The notes under the pieces were generated by a model that was not told the origin of the DNA, did no database searches, and saw only the letters and a program-made list of their open reading frames with translations. Below, piece after piece: positions 4,865-50,119 of a stretch of DNA of 50,356 bases; positions within the stretch are counted from its first letter, which is position 1; each line of letters opens with the position of its first letter. This stretch comes from Thermomicrobiales bacterium (GTDB lineage Bacteria > Chloroflexota > Chloroflexia > Thermomicrobiales > UBA6265). A program made the translations under genes and the position numbers. Location: contig JAXDKI010000512.1 in the NCBI GenBank assembly GCA_034667245.1, positions 1 through 50,356 on the forward strand, given 5' to 3'.

Positions 4865-5227
4865 ATGGCAAAGCCGAATCGCCTGTTCGAGATGAGTTAT
4901 CGCCTGCATTCGCTCGCGCTTGCCGAACCTTTTCCGCAGGGCACCAGAACTGTCGGACCAACGGGTGGACTGGTCGTATGTGACGGGCAGCAGTGGTGTG
5001 GACGAACGATCTGGGTCGAGAAGCGAATGGGACGTGTTGCGACATCGGACCGGGTCATCGCCGAGGTACGAGAGTGGGACATCGATGACACGCCCGTTCT
5101 CGCCGCCGTGTTTCCTCATCTTCGCCCTGGAACGCACGAGGTTTTTGAGAGCGACTTCGGAGAACTCGGACGGAGTGCCGAGGTGATCGTCGATGCCGGC
5201 AAGGTTGTCTGGTTGAACTGGAGCTAG
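4865..5227 (+). CDS. Hypothetical protein (120 aa)
   Basis: ATG is preceded by AAGGAG with a 7-nt spacing. Codon pattern looks coding, but no recognisable motifs. An antisense ORF (4790..5137) was judged less likely. Confidence 0.55.
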   Translation: MAKPNRLFEMSYRLHSLALAEPFPQGTRTVGPTGGLVVCDGQQWCGRTIWVEKRMGRVATSDRVIAEVREWDIDDTPVLAAVFPHLRPGTHEVFESDFGELGRSAEVIVDAGKVVWLNWS

Positions 5228-5334
5228 AGGCGAGCTGCGACACGGTCATGAAACACGCTTGACCCGATCGGTAGTACGCTCCTCCCAACACCCCCACCTC
5301 CCCTGTTTTTCCATAGCTCACCCCCTTGCGTGGA

Positions 5335-5350
5335 TAGAACATTTGTTCTA
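5335..5350 (+). promoter_or_regulatory. LexA (SOS) box of the GAAC-N4-GTTC (Cheo) type, inside a candidate promoter
   Basis: 'TAGAAC-ATTT-GTTCTA' has perfectly palindromic 6-bp arms. It fills the 17-nt spacer between TTGCGT (5326..5331) and TACTCT (5349..5354), about 90 nt upstream of imuB. Confidence 0.65.
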
Positions 5351-5441
5351 CTCTACTGAGCAGGGCGCACGGATGGCGTGTCCGGACGCTTAGCGATGGC
5401 TCTGTGCGGCTTGCCGAGGGGCTGGAAGGGAGGTCGTAGCG

Positions 5442-6629
5442 GTGACCGTTGCCTGCATCTACATCCCGCATTTTGCCTTGCGGATGGCGTTGCTGGAGCG
5501 ACCGGGGCTCGATGGGGTGCCGCTCGTCCTGACCTCGCCGCCGAGTAGCCGGGTCGTGGTCGCGGATTGCACGCAAGAGGCGGTGGACCGGGGGATCAAG
5601 CCGGAGATGCCGTTGCGGGAGGTGACGGCACTCTGCCCGGAGGCGGTCTTTATCCAGCCGAACCCTGCCCGCGATGCGGCCGCGTTTGACCGGATCGTCG
5701 ATGCCCTGGAGAGCTTCAGTCCGTTCGTCGAGCCGGGAGAACCGGGGTGCTGCTACGTCGATCTTCAAGGGCTGGAGCGCCACGACGCGACGGTCGAGGA
5801 TGCGGTCACTCGCTTGCTCGGCCTCGTCCCGCCGGCGTTGCGACCGCGGGCCGGGGTAGCGCCGGGCAAGTTCACGGCCTGGGTGGCGGCGCGCCGGGCG
5901 CCTCCGGGTGGATTCCGGACCGTCGCACCGGCCGAGGTCGTGTCGTTCCTCACTCCGGGCCCGATCGACTGGTTACCGCTGACGGACGAGCTGCGGCAGC
6001 GGCTCGGTCGCCTGGGATTGCGGACGCTCGGTGAGTTCGCGGCGTTGCCGGTGTCGGCGGTTCAGGCGCGGTTCGGACCGGAGGGGCGGCGCGGCTGGGA
6101 GCTGGCGAACGGGCGGGACGAGGCGGTCGTCCGGCCGCGCGAGCGGATCGAGACGGTGGTCGAGAGGCTGACCTTGCCTGCACCGGCGACGAGTCGGGAG
6201 ACGCTGCTGATCGGCTTGAAGCGACTGATCGTCCGTGCCTTCGGGCGACCGGAGCTGCGCTTTCGCACCGTTCGACAGGCGCGGTTGCGGGTCCTGATCG
6301 AGGAGAACCGCTCCTGGGAAAAGGAGATGACGTTCCGTGAGCCGGTTGGGCGGGAGCGGGTGATCGAGGTGCTGGGTCACCGGCTGGCGGCGATCGAGTT
6401 ACCGGGGGCGGCCGAGGCGATGTCGTTGGAGTTGATCGGGCTGACGGCGGAGACGGCTCATCAGGAGTTGCTGCCGGGGCTGCGGTCGCGGCGGATGCGG
6501 CCGCTGGTCGAGGTTGCCCGTCAGTTGAAGCAGCGGTACGGGGAATCACCCCTCTACCGCGTCGTGGAGGTAGAACCATGGTCGCGGATTCCAGAACGTC
6601 GTCACGCGCTGCTGGCCTACGACCCCTGA
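5442..6629 (+). CDS. imuB: ImuB-like catalytically inactive Y-family DNA polymerase
   Basis: 395 aa with Y-family-like N-terminal architecture. The first motif 'ACIYIPHFALRMAL' lacks the catalytic acidic residues. GTG start with GGGAGG 8 nt upstream. It sits directly upstream of dnaE2 and downstream of a LexA box. Confidence 0.8.
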   Translation: MTVACIYIPHFALRMALLERPGLDGVPLVLTSPPSSRVVVADCTQEAVDRGIKPEMPLREVTALCPEAVFIQPNPARDAAAFDRIVDALESFSPFVEPGEPGCCYVDLQGLERHDATVEDAVTRLLGLVPPALRPRAGVAPGKFTAWVAARRAPPGGFRTVAPAEVVSFLTPGPIDWLPLTDELRQRLGRLGLRTLGEFAALPVSAVQARFGPEGRRGWELANGRDEAVVRPRERIETVVERLTLPAPATSRETLLIGLKRLIVRAFGRPELRFRTVRQARLRVLIEENRSWEKEMTFREPVGRERVIEVLGHRLAAIELPGAAEAMSLELIGLTAETAHQELLPGLRSRRMRPLVEVARQLKQRYGESPLYRVVEVEPWSRIPERRHALLAYDP

Positions 6630-6856
6630 ACGCGCCACGGCTGGTGCGGGTGCTGACGGGAGACGGGTTGCCGATCGCGGTCGTGGAGGGGGAACGGCGC
6701 CGGGCGGCGCAGATCGAGGACGTTTGGTACGTGGACGACGAGTGGTGGCGCGAGCCGATCGCCCGGCGCTACTACCGGTTGTTCCTCGACGGTGGCGTGG
6801 TGCGGACGGTCTACCACGATGGAGAACGCGACGAATGGTTCGCGCAGGGGTATTAG
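6578..6856 (+). CDS. Small conserved-looking protein (92 aa) between imuB and dnaE2
   Basis: ATG is preceded by GGAGG with a 7-nt spacing. It overlaps the imuB 3' end by 52 nt in the -1 frame. The Trp/Arg-rich core reads 'EDVWYVDDEWWREPIARRYYRLFLDGGVVRTVYHD'. Confidence 0.55.
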   Translation: MVADSRTSSRAAGLRPLNAPRLVRVLTGDGLPIAVVEGERRRAAQIEDVWYVDDEWWREPIARRYYRLFLDGGVVRTVYHDGERDEWFAQGY

Positions 6857-7037
6857 CCCGAACAAGCAGGCCGACATCGATCGTAGGCGTACGGCTGTGC
6901 TTCATCTGTTCCACCTTCTCCGCGATCACGACGCCTCGTATCTATCCCCGATCTGTCCCCGACGCCGTTACCCCCAGCAGGGCGCACGGCGGTGCGCCCC
7001 TACAGATCCTGGCACGGGATGCCCCAATCGGTAGGCT

Positions 7038-10000
7038 ATGGCCGACAAAGTCGAGTATGTCGAACTTCACCTCCATACCGCCTTTTCCTTTCTCGATGGG
7101 GCGTCGCTGCCCGACGAGTTGGTGGGGCGGGCTGTCGAACTCGGTTATCGCGCACTGGCGGTGACCGACCATGACGGGTTGTATGGGGCGATGGAGTTTG
7201 CGCTGGCGGCGAAGGGTGCCGGGATCGCGCCGATCACTGGTGCGGAGGTGACGCTGACCGACGGCACGCATCTGACGCTGTTGGCGGAGACGCAGCAGGG
7301 GTATGCGAATCTTTGCCGGCTGATCACGGCGGCGCATCATGCGGGGCTTGGTAGCAGCCCTCACCCCCCGGTCCCCTCTCCCGACCACGGGAGAGGAGGG
7401 GACGGCGATCGTTCGAATATCCCTTTTGAACTCCGTGGCATCGGGAAGTCGAAGCCGCTCTACAGGCCGGAGGATCGCACGCCGCGCCTCGATCCCGCGC
7501 TGATTCCGGGCCATGCCGAGGGGTTGATTCTGCTGACCGGGTGCCGGCAGGGGCGTCTCTCTCAGTCCGTCGATGCTGATCAGCGGCAGGAAGCGGAGGC
7601 ACTCCTTAGTGATTACGTCAACTGGTTTGGCAAGGACAATGTGGTCGTCGAGCTTCAGCAGAATCGGGTCTACGGGGATGGGCGGCGGACGCAGGGGTTG
7701 GTTCATCTGGCCGAGCATCTTGGGTTGCCCTATGCCGCGACCGGGAACGTCCATTACCACCGGCAGGAGCGGCACCGGCTTCAGGATGTTCTCGTCGCGA
7801 TCAAACACCGAACGACGCTCGACCATTCGCACCGCGAGCGGCGGCCGAATGCGCAGTTCTATCTCCGCTCTGCGGAGGAGATGGGGAAGCTTTTCGAGCG
7901 CTATCCGGCTGCGCTGACGACAACCGGCCGGATTGCGGAGCGGTGCGCGAAGTTCGATCTGACCCGTGATCTGGACTACGCATTCCCCGACTACCCGACC
8001 GAGAACGGCGAGACCCCGGGCGCGATGCTGGCCCGCGTCTGCCGCAAGGCGTTGGCGGAACGCTATTCCGAGGAGCAACGAGAGGCAGCCGAGCGGCGAT
8101 TGTGCGAAGAGCTGGCGGTGATCGAGCGGCACAAGCTCGGCGGGTTCTTTCTCCTCTATCGCGATCTGCTGCTGCTGGCACGGGAGGTCGCCGACGAGGT
8201 GCGCGGTGTCGACAGTGCGCGAAGTGCGGCCAATCTGCCGCCGGGGCGGGGGCGCGGGTCATCGGTCAGCTCGATCGTCTGCTACTTGATCGGGCTCTCC
8301 CACATCGACCCGGTGAAAAACAATCTCTTCTTCGGCCGCTTCCTCAACGAGGAGATGTACGCCGTCCCGGACATCGACCTCGACTTCCCACGGGAGATCC
8401 GGGAGCGGTTGATCGAGCGGGTCCACGAGAAGTACGCCGACCGCGCCGCGCTCGTCTGCGCCTTCTCGACCTACAAGCTGCGGAGCGCAGTGCGCGACGT
8501 CGGGAAGGCGCTCGGTCTGCCGCAGCCGGACATCGACAAGATCGCCAAGCTCAGCGAGCCGCGCTCCGCCCACGATCTGAGCCGGGAGCTCGACCGCATC
8601 CCCGGGTACGCCGAACGGAAGGACAACCCGCCGTGGTCTCACCTCGTCGAGCTCGCCGATCAGCTGGCGGGATTTCCGCGCCATGTCACCCAACACGTCG
8701 GCGGGATGGTGGTCGCCGCGGGCTCGCTTTGCCAGATCGTGCCGGTGCAACCGGCCGCGATGGAGGGGCGCTTCCTCTGCCAGTGGGACAAGGACTCGTG
8801 CGACGACGCCCGGATGGTCAAGATCGACTTCCTGGCGCTGGGGATGCTCTCGCTGGTCGAGGAGTGCCTGGAGCTGATCGCGGCCTCCACCGGGAAGACG
8901 GTCGATCTCAGCCGGATCAACTTCAATGACCCGGAGGTCTACGAGATGATCTGTAAGGGGGACACGGTCGGCGTCTTCCAGATCGAGAGTCGGGCCCAGA
9001 TCCAGATGCTGCCGCGGACGCGGCCGAAGAGTCTGGACGATTTAGCGGTCCAGGTCGCGATCGTCAGGCCGGGACCGATCATCGGCGGCGCGGTGACGCC
9101 GTACGTCGCGCACCGGCAGCAGGAGCGGACGAGTTTCCTGCCGATCGAGCCGCAGTACGACCACGAGTGTCTCAAGGAGGTGCTGGCAGAGACGCACGGG
9201 GTGGTGCTTTTTCAGGAGCAGGTCCTGCAGGTGGCGATGGCGTATGCCGGGTTCACGCCAGGCGAGGCGGAGGGATTCCGGCGGGCGATGAGTCGCAAGC
9301 GCTCACAGGAGGCGATGGCCGCCCTCAAGGAGAAATTCATCACCGGCGCCGTTGCGAAGCACCAAACGACGAAACACCAAGTGACGCACGCGGAGGCTGA
9401 GAAGGTGTTTACCAAGCTGGCAGGTTTCGCGAGCTACGGGTTTCCTAAAGCCCACGCGACGGCGTTCGCGCTGCTGGCTTACCAGTCGTGCTGGTTGAAG
9501 CACTACTACCCCGCGGAGTTCACCTGCGCCCTGCTCAACAACCAACCGATGGGGTTCTACCCGCCGCACGTGCTGATCAACGACGCCAAGCGGCACAAGC
9601 TGCGCGTCCTGGCGCCCGACGTGAACCTGAGCGGTGTCCGTTGCAATCTCGACGGGGGGAACGGGATCCGGATCGGGTTGGGGTACGTCAAGGAGCTGGG
9701 GGAGGAGCCGGCGCAGCGAATCGTGCTCGAGCGGGAGGCGAACGGGCAGTACCGGTCGCTGGCCGATCTCGTCCGGCGGGTGCCGCTGCCGACCGCGGCG
9801 GTTGAGAACCTGATCGCGGTCGGGGCGTTCGACCGCTTCGGGCTCGGGCGGCGGGAGGCGCTCTGGCAGTTGGGGCTCTTTATCCCCTCGCAACGCTTCG
9901 GGACCAAACAGACGACGGCGAACGGCCGGCAGATCCCGCTGGCGCTGCCGGTTGGGCAAGACGGCGTCGAGTTGCGGCCGATGGGTGCCTGGGACCAGAT

Positions 10001-10478
10001 GGCGGCCGACTACGCGGTGCTCGGTCTCTCGCCGCGTTATCACCCGCTCGGGTTGCTGCGCTGGCGGCTGCCGCAGCACTTCGTCACGGTCGCCGATCTG
10101 GAGCGTCTGCCGCACGGGGCGGAGATCGAGATCGCCGGGTTGACGGTCTGCCGGCAGCGACCGGGGACGGCGAAGGGGATCACGTTCCTCCTGTTGGAGG
10201 ACGAGCACGGGTTGGTGAACGTGATCGTCTACCCGGACCTCTACGAGCGGCAGCGGATGGTGGTCCGCGGCGAGCCGTTCATCGTGGTGACGGGGACGCT
10301 GCAGAAGCAAAACGACACGATCAACGTGATCACCCGCCAAGTCAGGCCACTGGAGAACGCCCGGCAGGAGTTTGCGGCGGCACCTGCCCGCGATCTGGAC
10401 GACGTCACCGCGCCCTTCGAGCCGGAACGAGAACGGGAGCTGGCGACGGTGTCGCCGGAGTCGCATAACTACCGGTGA
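7038..10478 (+). CDS. dnaE2: Error-prone DNA polymerase III alpha-like DnaE2
   Basis: 1146 aa. PHP domain 'VELHLHTAFSFLDGAS...VTDHDGLYG', pol III alpha core ('GRGSSVSSIVCYLIGLSHIDP', 'PDIDLDF', 'GVFQIESR') and a C-terminal OB region. Genetic linkage to imuB. Confidence 0.92.
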   Translation: MADKVEYVELHLHTAFSFLDGASLPDELVGRAVELGYRALAVTDHDGLYGAMEFALAAKGAGIAPITGAEVTLTDGTHLTLLAETQQGYANLCRLITAAHHAGLGSSPHPPVPSPDHGRGGDGDRSNIPFELRGIGKSKPLYRPEDRTPRLDPALIPGHAEGLILLTGCRQGRLSQSVDADQRQEAEALLSDYVNWFGKDNVVVELQQNRVYGDGRRTQGLVHLAEHLGLPYAATGNVHYHRQERHRLQDVLVAIKHRTTLDHSHRERRPNAQFYLRSAEEMGKLFERYPAALTTTGRIAERCAKFDLTRDLDYAFPDYPTENGETPGAMLARVCRKALAERYSEEQREAAERRLCEELAVIERHKLGGFFLLYRDLLLLAREVADEVRGVDSARSAANLPPGRGRGSSVSSIVCYLIGLSHIDPVKNNLFFGRFLNEEMYAVPDIDLDFPREIRERLIERVHEKYADRAALVCAFSTYKLRSAVRDVGKALGLPQPDIDKIAKLSEPRSAHDLSRELDRIPGYAERKDNPPWSHLVELADQLAGFPRHVTQHVGGMVVAAGSLCQIVPVQPAAMEGRFLCQWDKDSCDDARMVKIDFLALGMLSLVEECLELIAASTGKTVDLSRINFNDPEVYEMICKGDTVGVFQIESRAQIQMLPRTRPKSLDDLAVQVAIVRPGPIIGGAVTPYVAHRQQERTSFLPIEPQYDHECLKEVLAETHGVVLFQEQVLQVAMAYAGFTPGEAEGFRRAMSRKRSQEAMAALKEKFITGAVAKHQTTKHQVTHAEAEKVFTKLAGFASYGFPKAHATAFALLAYQSCWLKHYYPAEFTCALLNNQPMGFYPPHVLINDAKRHKLRVLAPDVNLSGVRCNLDGGNGIRIGLGYVKELGEEPAQRIVLEREANGQYRSLADLVRRVPLPTAAVENLIAVGAFDRFGLGRREALWQLGLFIPSQRFGTKQTTANGRQIPLALPVGQDGVELRPMGAWDQMAADYAVLGLSPRYHPLGLLRWRLPQHFVTVADLERLPHGAEIEIAGLTVCRQRPGTAKGITFLLLEDEHGLVNVIVYPDLYERQRMVVRGEPFIVVTGTLQKQNDTINVITRQVRPLENARQEFAAAPARDLDDVTAPFEPERERELATVSPESHNYR
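7358..7403. repeat. REP/MITE-like hairpin repeat, copy 2, in frame inside dnaE2
   Basis: Head 'ccctcacccccc' plus stem cctctccc (7375..7382) / gggagagg (7389..7396). It is translated as 'SSPHPPVPSPDHGRGGDG' in the DnaE2 frame. Confidence 0.6.
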
Positions 10479-11176
10479 GAGGGTGAACCGTTCTCGGGGG
10501 AACGCCGTCGCGCCTCGTACATGGCGCGAATCTTCGCGAAGTACGCGTCCGGTGCGATCTCCATGATCGCGTCGTCAGGATCGGGCAACGGCAATTCGCG
10601 AAGCCATCGCGGATCGACCCAGAAACCGGGTAAGACCAACGAGGGCTGAAGCCCTCTGCTATCCGGGGCAAGCGACTCATACAGACCATCCGCCGACAAG
10701 GAGAAGACCTCGAGGCGCTGCTTTCCCGGACGTGGATCGACCAACCAGTACTCGGGCACACCGGCACGTTGGTACGCGGCAAACTTGTCGCGACGATCGT
10801 AGGCTGCGGCGGAGTCCGACGTCACTTCCATCACGAGGTCGGCGGGACCCTCCAATCGCAGATCCGTCCGACGATCAAAATGCTCCCGGCGAACGAAGAG
10901 GATGTCTGGTTCCCGCGCCGAACCGTCCGCCAATCGCATCTCGAACGGAGCAACGATCACAACACCCAGATCATGCAAGCCGACAAACCGCTCAAGGAGC
11001 GAAGCGAGGAAGAAAATCACTCGCTGGTGCAACTCTCCCGGCGGCATGAAGACGATCACCTCACCGTCGACCCACTCGGCGTGAGTCGTGTCACCCGACC
11101 AGTCGAGGAACTCTTCGTAGCTCATTTTCAGACGCGGTAATTCGGTTGCAACAGTCTCGATTACTTGCCGGCCCAT
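10469..11176 (-). CDS. Uma2-family (DUF820) putative endonuclease
   Basis: 235 aa with family-typical 'YEEFL...AEWVDGEVIVFMPP', 'PDILFV', 'ADLVMEVTSDS' and 'KFAAYQRAGVPEYWLVDP'. ATG has AGGAGA 8 nt upstream. The convergent 3' end overlaps dnaE2 by 10 bp. Confidence 0.85.
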   Translation of the reverse strand: MGRQVIETVATELPRLKMSYEEFLDWSGDTTHAEWVDGEVIVFMPPGELHQRVIFFLASLLERFVGLHDLGVVIVAPFEMRLADGSAREPDILFVRREHFDRRTDLRLEGPADLVMEVTSDSAAAYDRRDKFAAYQRAGVPEYWLVDPRPGKQRLEVFSLSADGLYESLAPDSRGLQPSLVLPGFWVDPRWLRELPLPDPDDAIMEIAPDAYFAKIRAMYEARRRSPENGSPSHR

Positions 11177-13209: not shown

Positions 13210-13845
13210 TCAAAAGAGAGTCATCTGGTTCGCCGGCTCCTCCGGCTTGGTCTCTTCCGAGCGCTTGGTGCGCTCGCGCTCGGCCTCGAGGAGGAACTTA
13301 GGCAGCTTGGCGAAGTCTTCTTCGATAGCACCGCGCAACGCCGACTGGTGCAGCGCGGCGGCCGGGTGATACATCGGGACGATCAGGCGACTGTCCACGC
13401 GTTTGGGTTGCCCGTGGATGCGCGAGATGCGCTCGCCGGGAAACCAGCGCGACATCGAGAAACGGCCCAGCGTCACGATGACGTCAGGATTGATGGCGGC
13501 GATTTGCCGGTCAAGGTACGGAGCGCAGGCGGCGATCTCGTCCGGCATTGGATCGCGATTACCGGGCGGGCGGCACTTCACGACGTTGGTGATGAAGACA
13601 TCCTCCCGCTTCAGCCCGGCGATGGCGAGGAGCTCGTTGAGGAATTTGCCCGCGGCGCCGACGAACGGCTTGCCCTGCTGGTCTTCGTGCCAGCCCGGTC
13701 CCTCGCCGACGAACATGATCTGCGCATTCGAGTTTCCGTCGCCCGGCACGGCGTGCGTGCGAGTGCGCGACAGCTCGCACTTCGGGCAGACTTTTACCTC
13801 TGCCGCGATTTCGGCCAGGATTTCTTCCGCTGTTGCTTCCGTCAC
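13210..13845 (-). CDS. Uracil-DNA glycosylase, family 4
   Basis: 211 aa with 'CPKCELS' Fe-S cysteines, 'FVGEGPGWHED' and 'MYHPAAAL'. GTG start. Confidence 0.88.
   Translation of the reverse strand: MTEATAEEILAEIAAEVKVCPKCELSRTRTHAVPGDGNSNAQIMFVGEGPGWHEDQQGKPFVGAAGKFLNELLAIAGLKREDVFITNVVKCRPPGNRDPMPDEIAACAPYLDRQIAAINPDVIVTLGRFSMSRWFPGERISRIHGQPKRVDSRLIVPMYHPAAALHQSALRGAIEEDFAKLPKFLLEAERERTKRSEETKPEEPANQMTLF

Positions 13846-13952: not shown

Positions 13953-18515
<4,563 letters not shown>

Positions 18516-50046: not shown

Positions 50047-50119
<73 letters not shown>

Follow-up and report, generated by a model that had tools for sequence, protein, structure and literature searches.

An imuA-free gene order of a Y-family gene, imuB-C (the ImuB C-terminal domain) and dnaE2 has been described repeatedly, and both this architecture and the identity of its small protein are already known from publications of 2009, 2013, 2019 and 2026. 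Aravind et al. (2013) reported solo ImuB-C accompanied by DnaE2 and an inactive DinB (PMC3765255), and Timinskas and Venclovas (2019) described iPolY-ImuB-C-DnaE2 (PMC6511836, Fig. 8 and Table S4). Table S4 includes Sphaerobacter thermophilus, which the taxonomy of that paper assigns to Chloroflexi, as it does Thermomicrobium; the C-terminal motifs given for it are essentially those reported below. Timinskas et al. (2026) described a "DnaE2X-iPolY-ImuBC-RecA" group (PMC12926913). [quoted passage not shown] An earlier note on the DNA analyzed here had regarded its cassette as an undescribed architectural variant with a 92-aa ORF (orf92) in an unusual position. Neither view stands against these publications, in which a standalone ImuB-C between the Y-family gene and dnaE2 is the published order.

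The window (the whole stretch of DNA analyzed, 50,356 nucleotides) very probably carries a LexA-repressed imuY(iPolY)-imuB-C-dnaE2 mutagenesis cassette. Three genes, all on the + strand, lie behind a LexA box where the earlier note had placed them: imuY/iPolY (5442-6629), imuB-C (6578-6856) and dnaE2 (7038-10478). The proposal of an SOS-boxed, imuA-less Y-family/DnaE2 cassette was borne out, with the LexA box, the gene identities and an ImuA-free window all found. The identities of the three genes, the loss of the Y-family catalytic residues, an intact DnaE2 active site, homology of orf92 to ImuB-C, and retention of the gene order and LexA box in relatives were shown here. The order Y-family, ImuB-C, DnaE2 was kept across 80 related loci, which belonged to Chloroflexota and Gemmatimonadota, apart from one MAG (L033) that carries the label Miltoncostaeaceae and is taken as Actinomycetota. 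The earlier note had made its reading depend on conservation of orf92 beside imuB in relatives, and orf92 was kept there in 80/80 loci. The flanks of these loci (up to 8 kb on each side, often shortened by contig ends) contained no fourth conserved neighbor and no ImuA/RecA-like match.

The LexA box is of the Cheo type (Gram-positive/Chloroflexi type), a site with palindromic arms, TAGAACATTTGTTCTA, at 5335-5350 on the + strand, and LexA binding to it is predicted. Its 12-mer core (GAACATTTGTTC, 5337-5348) is 105 nt upstream of the Y-family start and is the sole GAAC-N4-GTTC site in the window, but the bare 12-mer is not significant alone (1 match in the window vs 0.89 expected by chance). The evidence is carried by its conserved position. 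Of 74 testable related loci, 44 had a GAAC-N4-GTTC box, usually TAGAACATATGTTCTA, in the 300 nt preceding the orthologous gene, and these upstream boxes made up 44 of all 62 boxes found in 1.06 Mb. In at least 3 loci with a displaced dnaE2 (L012, L048 and L080), a second box preceded the estimated start of dnaE2 by approximately 20-30 nt. These data suggest SOS (LexA/RecA) control of the cassette. The earlier note had set the box inside a -35/-10 pair; the box was confirmed but the pair was not. A promoter scan of 5150-7100 returned no sigma-70-like site and no convincing sigma-70 promoter, and TTGCGT-17-TACTCT, chosen by eye, has only 3/6 and 3/6 consensus matches, which makes the pair the weak point of that claim.

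The first gene encodes a 395-aa inactive Y-family polymerase homolog, an "ImuB" without the C-terminal domain, that matched Pfam IMS with an E value of 2.2e-18; in an NCBIfam search, it matched DinB models far below their cutoffs. When aligned to E. coli DinB, the protein had G and C in place of D103 and E104, and extension of the same alignment register placed I6 and I8 at the positions of D8 and D10. Because of these replacements the protein is catalytically dead, which agrees with the earlier description of a 395-aa Y-family-like protein without the catalytic acidic residues. Homologs of this length are the norm in Thermomicrobiales. The AF2 model (pLDDT 83.8) had a confident palm, fingers, thumb and little-finger core over residues 1-335.

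Beyond this core, QELLPGL (aa 341-347; 6462-6482, + strand) occupies the beta-clamp-binding motif position in a disordered linker, with pLDDT below 50 over residues 339-353. Q341 is invariant in the aligned relatives, which have QESLF, QEQLFG, QGNLWG or LQLFA at this position. The window's own variant has no aromatic residue and departs from the QxxLF consensus, so that its binding to the beta clamp is putative. It precedes a RecA-N-terminus-like (RecA-NT) motif, RSRRMRPLVEVARQLKQRYGESPLYRVV (aa 348-375; 6483-6566, + strand), of which 19/28 residues, counted by eye, are identical to RPRRARQLIEAIRQLKQRYGTSPIYRVV of S. thermophilus ACZ39475 as given in Table S4 of PMC6511836. In the AF2 model, a helix (355-366) is followed by a strand (372-374), as in the RecA N-terminus. 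The C-terminal extension has a RecA-NT-like motif, for which RecA binding is predicted. The protein ends in a conserved tail, EVEPWSRIPERRHALLAYDP (aa 376-395; 6567-6626, + strand), in which E376, E378, P379, W380, S381, R382, P384, E385, R386 and R387 are invariant in the aligned relatives. Table S4 also gives this tail for Sphaerobacter and Dehalogenimonas, and the combination of RecA-NT-like motif and EVEPWSRIPERR tail is near-identical to that tabulated for S. thermophilus.

The second gene, orf92 (92 aa, + strand), encodes the ImuB-C domain (Pfam DUF6504) as a protein of its own; together, the Y-family gene and orf92 are a split ImuB, with the C-terminal domain detached as orf92. That orf92 is a real gene is shown by its GC3 of 0.82, 19 close homologs and 1547 representative homologs, mostly of about 95 aa, and the earlier view of it as a genuine extra component was correct. 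Orf92 itself stayed below every Pfam threshold, and the domain was recognized only through its relatives and the family profile. Four of the 19 family members matched DUF6504 below E 1, and one further relative (P0140) passed its gathering score, while a canonical ImuB matched DUF6504 over 401-474 just under that score (23.3 vs 24.2 bits). An hhalign comparison of a 93-sequence orf92-family profile with residues 386-474 of R. etli (Rhizobium) ImuB covered the whole domain with 89.8% probability and E 1.8e-6. Two Rosetta-stone fusions were also found, one joining a Y-family C-terminus to ImuB-C (P0274) and the other joining ImuB-C to the PHP domain of DnaE2 (P0250). The AF2 model of orf92 had disordered residues 1-16 and an all-beta domain of six strands over 21-90, and a structure search with it returned no PDB fold neighbor; ImuB-C is likewise reported as all-beta and without a PDB neighbor in PMC12926913. 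The automatic gene call was a shorter, 70-aa form (P0006). Its start falls downstream of the conserved LRPLNxPRP motif, and the 92-aa form is therefore the real one.

A 181-nt spacer (6857-7037, + strand) separates imuB-C from dnaE2. It contains no LexA box and no terminator-like site, and dnaE2 is therefore probably co-transcribed with the upstream genes. The 1146-aa product, which the earlier note had called DnaE2, scored 1018.7 bits against NCBIfam NF004225 "error-prone DNA polymerase" (cutoff 939), and contains PHP, pol3_alpha, finger, HHH and OB domains. In an alignment with Taq Pol III alpha, its PDIDLDF and KIDFLAL fall on the catalytic Asp motifs, and all three catalytic Asp are present, so the active site of this C-family polymerase is judged intact. 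Its associated partners alone would place it in the DnaE2X clade.

A canonical ImuA-ImuB-DnaE2 cassette has an ImuB with fused ImuB-C and a RecA-fold ImuA/ImuA' gene. Here, the Y-family ORF stops at 6629 with ImuB-C in the -1 frame, and the cassette contains no gene of the latter kind. Queries with Rhizobium ImuA and the RecA-like ImuA of Thermomicrobium had no tblastn match in the 50-kb window, and Pfam scans of 35 window ORFs (5 at the cassette and 30 elsewhere) detected no RecA, ImuA or LexA, as the earlier note had stated for RecA-fold ImuA-like ORFs. The upstream ORF at 4865-5227, which it had called an unrelated orphan, had no Pfam or NCBIfam match and no homolog in any related locus. 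The absence of imuA holds for 50 kb of this genome. It is unlikely that a canonical imuA/imuA' is located elsewhere, in the split mycobacterial arrangement, with its product rather than RecA as the third partner. Only 50 kb of the genome is visible, and Thermomicrobium roseum, of the same order, has a RecA-like ImuA beside ImuB1 and DnaE2, a cassette of canonical type, on a megaplasmid; imuA therefore exists in the clade. However, ImuA of T. roseum is paired with a fused ImuB1 of its own as a separate system, and the flanks of the 80 related loci (up to 8 kb on each side) argue against such a partner. So do three publications, in which no imuA was found in operons or whole genomes with iPolY-ImuB-C-DnaE2 (Timinskas and Venclovas 2019, PMC6511836), DnaE2X systems were placed in genomes without imuA and imuB (2026 survey, PMC12926913), and D. 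deserti had no imuA (PMC8072749).

The imuB-C ORF, in the -1 frame, shares 52 nt with the end of the Y-family gene, and its Shine-Dalgarno sequence GGAGG (6566-6570) and ATG (6578-6580) are embedded in the conserved codons of the Y-family tail. The identical out-of-frame overlap was found at 53 of 80 junctions (52 independent assemblies and this window), with ATG (48) or GTG (5) as the imuB-C start and GGAGG conserved 7 nt upstream. At the remaining 27 loci, mostly Gemmatimonadota, imuB-C is non-overlapping and lies behind the stop in any of the three frames. The overlap with its internal Shine-Dalgarno sequence most likely serves the translational coupling of ImuB-C to the Y-family protein. 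The excerpts of the literature on these cassettes that were consulted contain no description of a 52-nt overlap with an embedded start codon and Shine-Dalgarno sequence, and no mention of the two following options.

That the conserved junction does more than couple translation is quite improbable. Either a low-frequency -1 slip at C_CCC_UGA would yield some fused ImuB, and thus two scaffold isoforms in the cell, or the N-terminal arm of ImuB-C would act as a tether. In the latter option, the disordered arm (MVADS...LRPLNxPRP), partly encoded in the overlap, may insert into the Y-family protein as the UmuD' arm does into UmuC. In a rival reading, tRNA-Pro would undergo a programmed -1 slip on C_CCC_UGA (6621-6629) into the orf92 frame, joining the two ORFs during translation and giving an ImuB of canonical size (~470 aa) in addition to the separate products or in their place. 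Orf92 is in the required frame, at the GAC CCC TGA end of the Y-family gene a shift of one base backward leaves CCC perfectly paired, with CTG as the following codon and LNAPR... as the continuation, a CCCC run precedes the stop in 36 of the 53 overlapping loci, and the P0274 fusion exists in nature. However, the other 17 overlapping loci have no slip-compatible run (e.g. GAT CCC, GAG CCC, GAC CTC or GAT GCC), the 27 loci without overlap have imuB-C behind a stop in any frame, the conserved ATG/GTG and GGAGG are as expected for independent initiation, and neither a slippery heptamer nor a stimulatory element was identified, which together make such a slip highly improbable. The chance that the split is an artefact, whether a sequencing or assembly indel in a fused imuB or a chance ORF of the kind that high-GC DNA yields in numbers (the automatic call being only 70 aa), is negligible, and the comparative data refute it through the recurrent 52-nt overlap, the 395-aa homologs as the rule, and the orf92 family with its size, GC3 and confident beta-domain model.

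A mechanism for the cassette can be drawn from the literature on this system. DNA damage would trigger RecA-stimulated LexA cleavage and derepress the operon. The dead Y-family protein would be a scaffold that binds the beta clamp via the Qxx(L/F) motif of the disordered linker and binds RecA, replacing ImuA, via the RecA-NT-like helix-strand motif. [quoted passage not shown] For this window, LexA binding, induction and all protein contacts are inferences. The ImuB-C role and the substitution of RecA for ImuA are proposals. The cassette matters little as a discovery, with a Sphaerobacter thermophilus entry of near-identical motifs already tabulated; it is a useful example, as DnaE2 mutasomes without ImuA are widespread among uncultured members of Chloroflexota and Gemmatimonadota, and the compact, strongly conserved Thermomicrobiales operon could suit biochemical reconstitution.

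Compared with known systems, the cassette resembles the E. coli Pol V mutasome (UmuD'2C-RecA-ATP) in its SOS regulation and in a small beta-rich accessory subunit encoded adjacently. Both have a Y-family subunit with a conserved C-terminal tail and a RecA-NT-like motif, through which the subunit binds RecA in Pol V and is predicted to do so here. In contrast, the Y-family subunit of Pol V is an active polymerase, there is no DnaE2, and the SH3-like core of UmuD' is unrelated to the ImuB-C barrel (PMC12926913). The canonical ImuA-ImuB-DnaE2 mutasome shares a dead Y-family scaffold with clamp motif (putative in the window), RecA-NT motif and ImuB-C module, a catalytic DnaE2 and LexA control, whereas the window has no ImuA/ImuA' gene and RecA is proposed for that role. 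The Deinococcus cassette, the only version with genetic evidence, has the same order of inactive Y-family homolog, standalone ImuB-C (~80-92 aa) and DnaE2, no imuA, and SOS control; unlike the present one, it belongs to another phylum and has lexA in the operon, whereas only a LexA box and no lexA is present in the window. The iPolY-ImuB-C-DnaE2 systems of PMC6511836 (Kyrpidia tusciae type; Table S4 includes S. thermophilus ACZ39475/ACZ39476 and Dehalogenimonas), which received the name DnaE2X-iPolY-ImuBC-RecA group in 2026, have the same architecture, and RecA is likewise predicted to take the place of ImuA. In S. thermophilus, dnaE2 is elsewhere in the genome ("iPolY->ImuB-C + DnaE2"), whereas the three genes are contiguous here. 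The RecA-NT-like motif and tail of the window match the S. thermophilus entry almost residue for residue.

An earlier note made from the sequence had listed a LexA box and three plus-strand ORFs for 5326-10478, and all of these were present. The Cheo-type box TAGAACATTTGTTCTA (core GAAC-N4-GTTC) was read at 5335-5350 (+), and it was the single occurrence of GAAC-N4-GTTC across the 50-kb window. It is followed by the Y-family gene, imuY (5442-6629, +; 395 aa), by orf92, or imuB-C (6578-6856, +; 92 aa), which lies in the -1 frame relative to the Y-family ORF and overlaps it by 52 nt, and by dnaE2 (7038-10478, +; 1146 aa). Neither a second LexA box nor a terminator was found in the 181-nt spacer between imuB-C and dnaE2, which argues for a single transcript. 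The -35/-10 pair described around the box was the weakest item of that observation; a promoter scan gave no sigma-70-like site, and the hexamers, compared by eye, matched at 3/6 positions each.

The Y-family ORF matched Pfam IMS (E 2.2e-18), and DinB models matched it only far below their cutoffs. Its active site is dead: the catalytic D103/E104 of E. coli DinB aligned with G/C, and D8/D10, when the register was extended from that alignment, corresponded to I6/I8. On sequence grounds, the protein is predicted to be one that cannot have polymerase activity. The predicted structure consisted of a confident polymerase-like core (residues 1-335), a disordered linker (339-353), a helix (355-366), a short strand (372-374) and a low-confidence tail. 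The linker contains QELLPGL (341-347), which has no aromatic residue, where relatives have the clamp-binding-like QESLF, QEQLFG or QGNLWG. Residues 348-375 are RSRRMRPLVEVARQLKQRYGESPLYRVV, followed by the tail EVEPWSRIPERRHALLAYDP.

No direct match to orf92 itself was found in Pfam or NCBIfam. It had 19 close homologs of ~92 aa each, a profile search recovered 1547 representative relatives, the majority standalone and ~95 aa long, and orf92 is clearly a genuine gene. Pfam DUF6504 was matched by 4 of the 19 family members at E < 1, and a further relative (P0140) exceeded the gathering score of that model, 24.2 bits. Annotated Rhizobium etli ImuB, from a canonical imuA-imuB-dnaE2 cassette, matched DUF6504 over its C-terminal residues 401-474 at 23.3 bits, slightly below the gathering score. 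When a profile of 93 orf92-family sequences was compared with R. etli ImuB by hhalign, residues 386-474 aligned end to end (89.8% probability, E 1.8e-6); the C-terminus of Thermomicrobium roseum ImuB1 gave a weak match to the orf92 profile (4.7% probability). Two fusion proteins, each a single representative from a contig end that might be a read-through gene call, hint as Rosetta-stone clues at both contacts of ImuB-C: in P0274 an orf92-like domain follows immediately on a Y-family C-terminus (...VEPWSRIPERRHSLMPYEP), and in P0250 such a domain is fused to a DnaE2 at its N-terminal PHP domain. In the AlphaFold model of orf92, residues 1-16 were disordered and residues 21-90 formed six strands. 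Sequence and Foldseek searches for a solved ImuB-C structure gave nothing meaningful, and PDB searches returned no structure of ImuB or DnaE2; the model had no significant PDB neighbour, which agrees with the description of ImuB-C in PMC12926913 as a beta-barrel whose fold appears to be new. The DUF6504 matches, the hhalign result, the fusions and the model together identify orf92 as a standalone ImuB-C, and the Y-family gene and orf92 together are a split ImuB.

The dnaE2 product scored 1018.7 bits against the NCBIfam "error-prone DNA polymerase" model (cutoff 939). Its active site is live, with the catalytic aspartates kept in PDIDLDF and KIDFLAL when aligned to Taq Pol III alpha. We also observed an apparent Pro/Gly/Arg-rich insertion of ~35-50 aa (HHAGLGSSPHPPVPSPDHGRGGDGDRS...) in the PHP domain (~7335-7510, aa ~100-158); the alignment of E. 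coli Pol III alpha and several NCBIfam models to DnaE2 picks up again only at ~147-160. A convergent gene for a Uma2-family putative restriction endonuclease (10469-11176, -) overlaps the last 10 nt of dnaE2.

Scanning species-representative genomes with the orf92 profile yielded 80 loci, from Chloroflexota (mainly Thermomicrobiales, also Dehalococcoidia and Anaerolineae), from Gemmatimonadota (Palauibacter) and from one MAG (L033) labelled Miltoncostaeaceae, which we take to belong to Actinomycetota. The names of close homologs placed the organism of the window in Thermomicrobiales, Chloroflexota. Both gene order and the LexA box are conserved. The order Y-family, ImuB-C, DnaE2 was nearly universal among the 80 loci where the contig extends far enough, and, of the 74 loci with sufficient upstream sequence, 44 had a Cheo-type box at most 300 nt ahead of the Y-family gene; these 44 boxes are among a total of 62 in 1.06 Mb. 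The 30 box-less loci were chiefly Gemmatimonadota, plus a few Chloroflexota. At least three loci, all with dnaE2 split from imuB-C by inserted DNA, had a second GAAC-N4-GTTC ~20-30 nt ahead of where dnaE2 is estimated to begin (L012, ~9259; L048, ~8360; L080, ~12137), which suggests that independent SOS control may have been re-established at the displaced gene.

The earlier note had seen no imuA, and this holds for the window and for the flanks of its relatives. Rhizobium ImuA and the Thermomicrobium RecA-like ImuA, used as queries, had no match in any locus or in the window, and 30 further ORFs of the window were ordinary chromosomal genes by Pfam, none of them RecA, ImuA or LexA. A second mutagenesis system may be present elsewhere in this genome. 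T. roseum, of the same order, carries on its megaplasmid (NC_011961.1, locus L001, 3205-8670) a canonical-type recA-like/imuB/dnaE2 cassette, encoding a 357-aa RecA-domain protein (ImuA-like), a 416-aa ImuB1 with its C-terminal domain fused, and DnaE2, unlike the split cassette of the window; Thermomicrobiales thus contain both types of cassette.

A minor point concerns the junction of imuY and imuB-C (6566-6629), where the imuB-C start and a GGAGG lie within the ...VEVEPW... codons, as at the same junction among loci L003-L082. Among 80 junctions analysed, 53 had an overlap of exactly 52 nt, namely those of the window and of 52 related loci, with ATG (48) or GTG (5) as the imuB-C start. This start codon is formed by base 3 of the Pro codon and bases 1-2 of the Trp codon in ...EPW..., and GGAGG stands 7 nt upstream, inside the Val-Glu-Val codons. 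Nucleotide conservation was higher in the overlap (0.85) than in the flanks (~0.70), as expected from dual coding. A frameshift artefact or a programmed -1 frameshift joining both ORFs was rejected as the main explanation, since 17 of the 53 overlapping loci lack a CCCC run that would allow the slip, the two genes are non-overlapping, in any frame, in 27 loci (most Gemmatimonadota loci among them), and the start codon and Shine-Dalgarno sequence are conserved. The CCCC gaps and the non-overlapping loci likewise count against a -1 slip at C_CCC_UGA restoring full-length ImuB. Separate translation of the Y-family protein and ImuB-C is the best reading of these sequences, and translation of the two ORFs is probably coupled. 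We found no description of the 52-nt overlap in the consulted parts of publications on this cassette type. A 70-aa gene call for orf92 (GTG at 6644) was ruled out, since a protein starting there would lack the conserved LRPLNxPRP motif.

Clustering of neighbours across the 80 loci for a fourth conserved gene replacing ImuA gave lineage-specific synteny only, with recR, ftsK, UDG and DnaQ-GIY-YIG in Thermomicrobiales and DoxX, FGE-sulfatase and others in Gemmatimonadota. The order recR, ftsK, cassette, UDG, DnaQ-GIY-YIG was syntenic in about 15-21 Thermomicrobiales loci. In the window, the DnaQ-GIY-YIG gene (13953-16094, -) encodes a 713-aa protein with a DnaQ-like RNase_T exonuclease, a GIY-YIG nuclease and a UVR motif, and adjoins genes for a UDG-family glycosylase (13210-13845) and an NAD-dependent ligase (16084-18300). 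The sole Rfam match in the window was a tRNA (50047-50119, +). The upstream "orphan" (4865-5227, +) was rejected as a cassette member; none of the 80 loci, including the closest relative, L003, contained a homolog, and Pfam and NCBIfam gave no match. Its GC3 was 0.64, compared with at least 0.8 in neighbouring genes, and the ORF is possibly not a true gene.

According to the cited work, LexA cleavage would derepress one transcript, and the Y-family protein would serve as scaffold for a complex on the clamp and RecA. [quoted passage not shown] Candidate contacts are the conserved EVEPWSRIPERR tail of the Y-family protein and the N-terminal LRPLNxPRP segment of ImuB-C.

The cassette belongs to a known type, of which it is one more example. 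The earlier interpretation was right in seeing an imuA-less cassette with the small protein as a real component; its suggestion of an undescribed variant is not supported, because the architecture has been published (PMC3765255, PMC6511836, PMC12926913, PMC8072749). The list of described cassettes that it gave was incomplete, and the position of orf92 between the Y-family gene and dnaE2, considered unusual, is standard for the type. ImuB-C was defined by Aravind et al. (PMC3765255), and iPolY-ImuB-C-DnaE2 systems lack imuA in operon and genome, with RecA proposed to replace ImuA via a RecA-NT-like motif (PMC6511836). A 2026 survey names the type DnaE2X-iPolY-ImuBC-RecA and interprets it as a split ImuB from which the canonical mutasome may have evolved (PMC12926913). 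Sphaerobacter thermophilus ACZ39475, tabulated under iPolY-ImuB-C-DnaE2 in PMC6511836, has a RecA-NT-like motif (RPRRARQLIEAIRQLKQRYGTSPIYRVV) and tail (EVEPWSRIPERRRALISFDP) nearly identical to those of the window's Y-family protein. The cassette of Deinococcus deserti and D. ficus, lexA-imuY-imuB-C-dnaE2, is of the same type, with lexA as first gene; as reported in PMC8072749, it is radiation-induced in a RecA-dependent manner, and UV mutagenesis in D. deserti, whose genome is without imuA, requires ImuY, DnaE2 and RecA.
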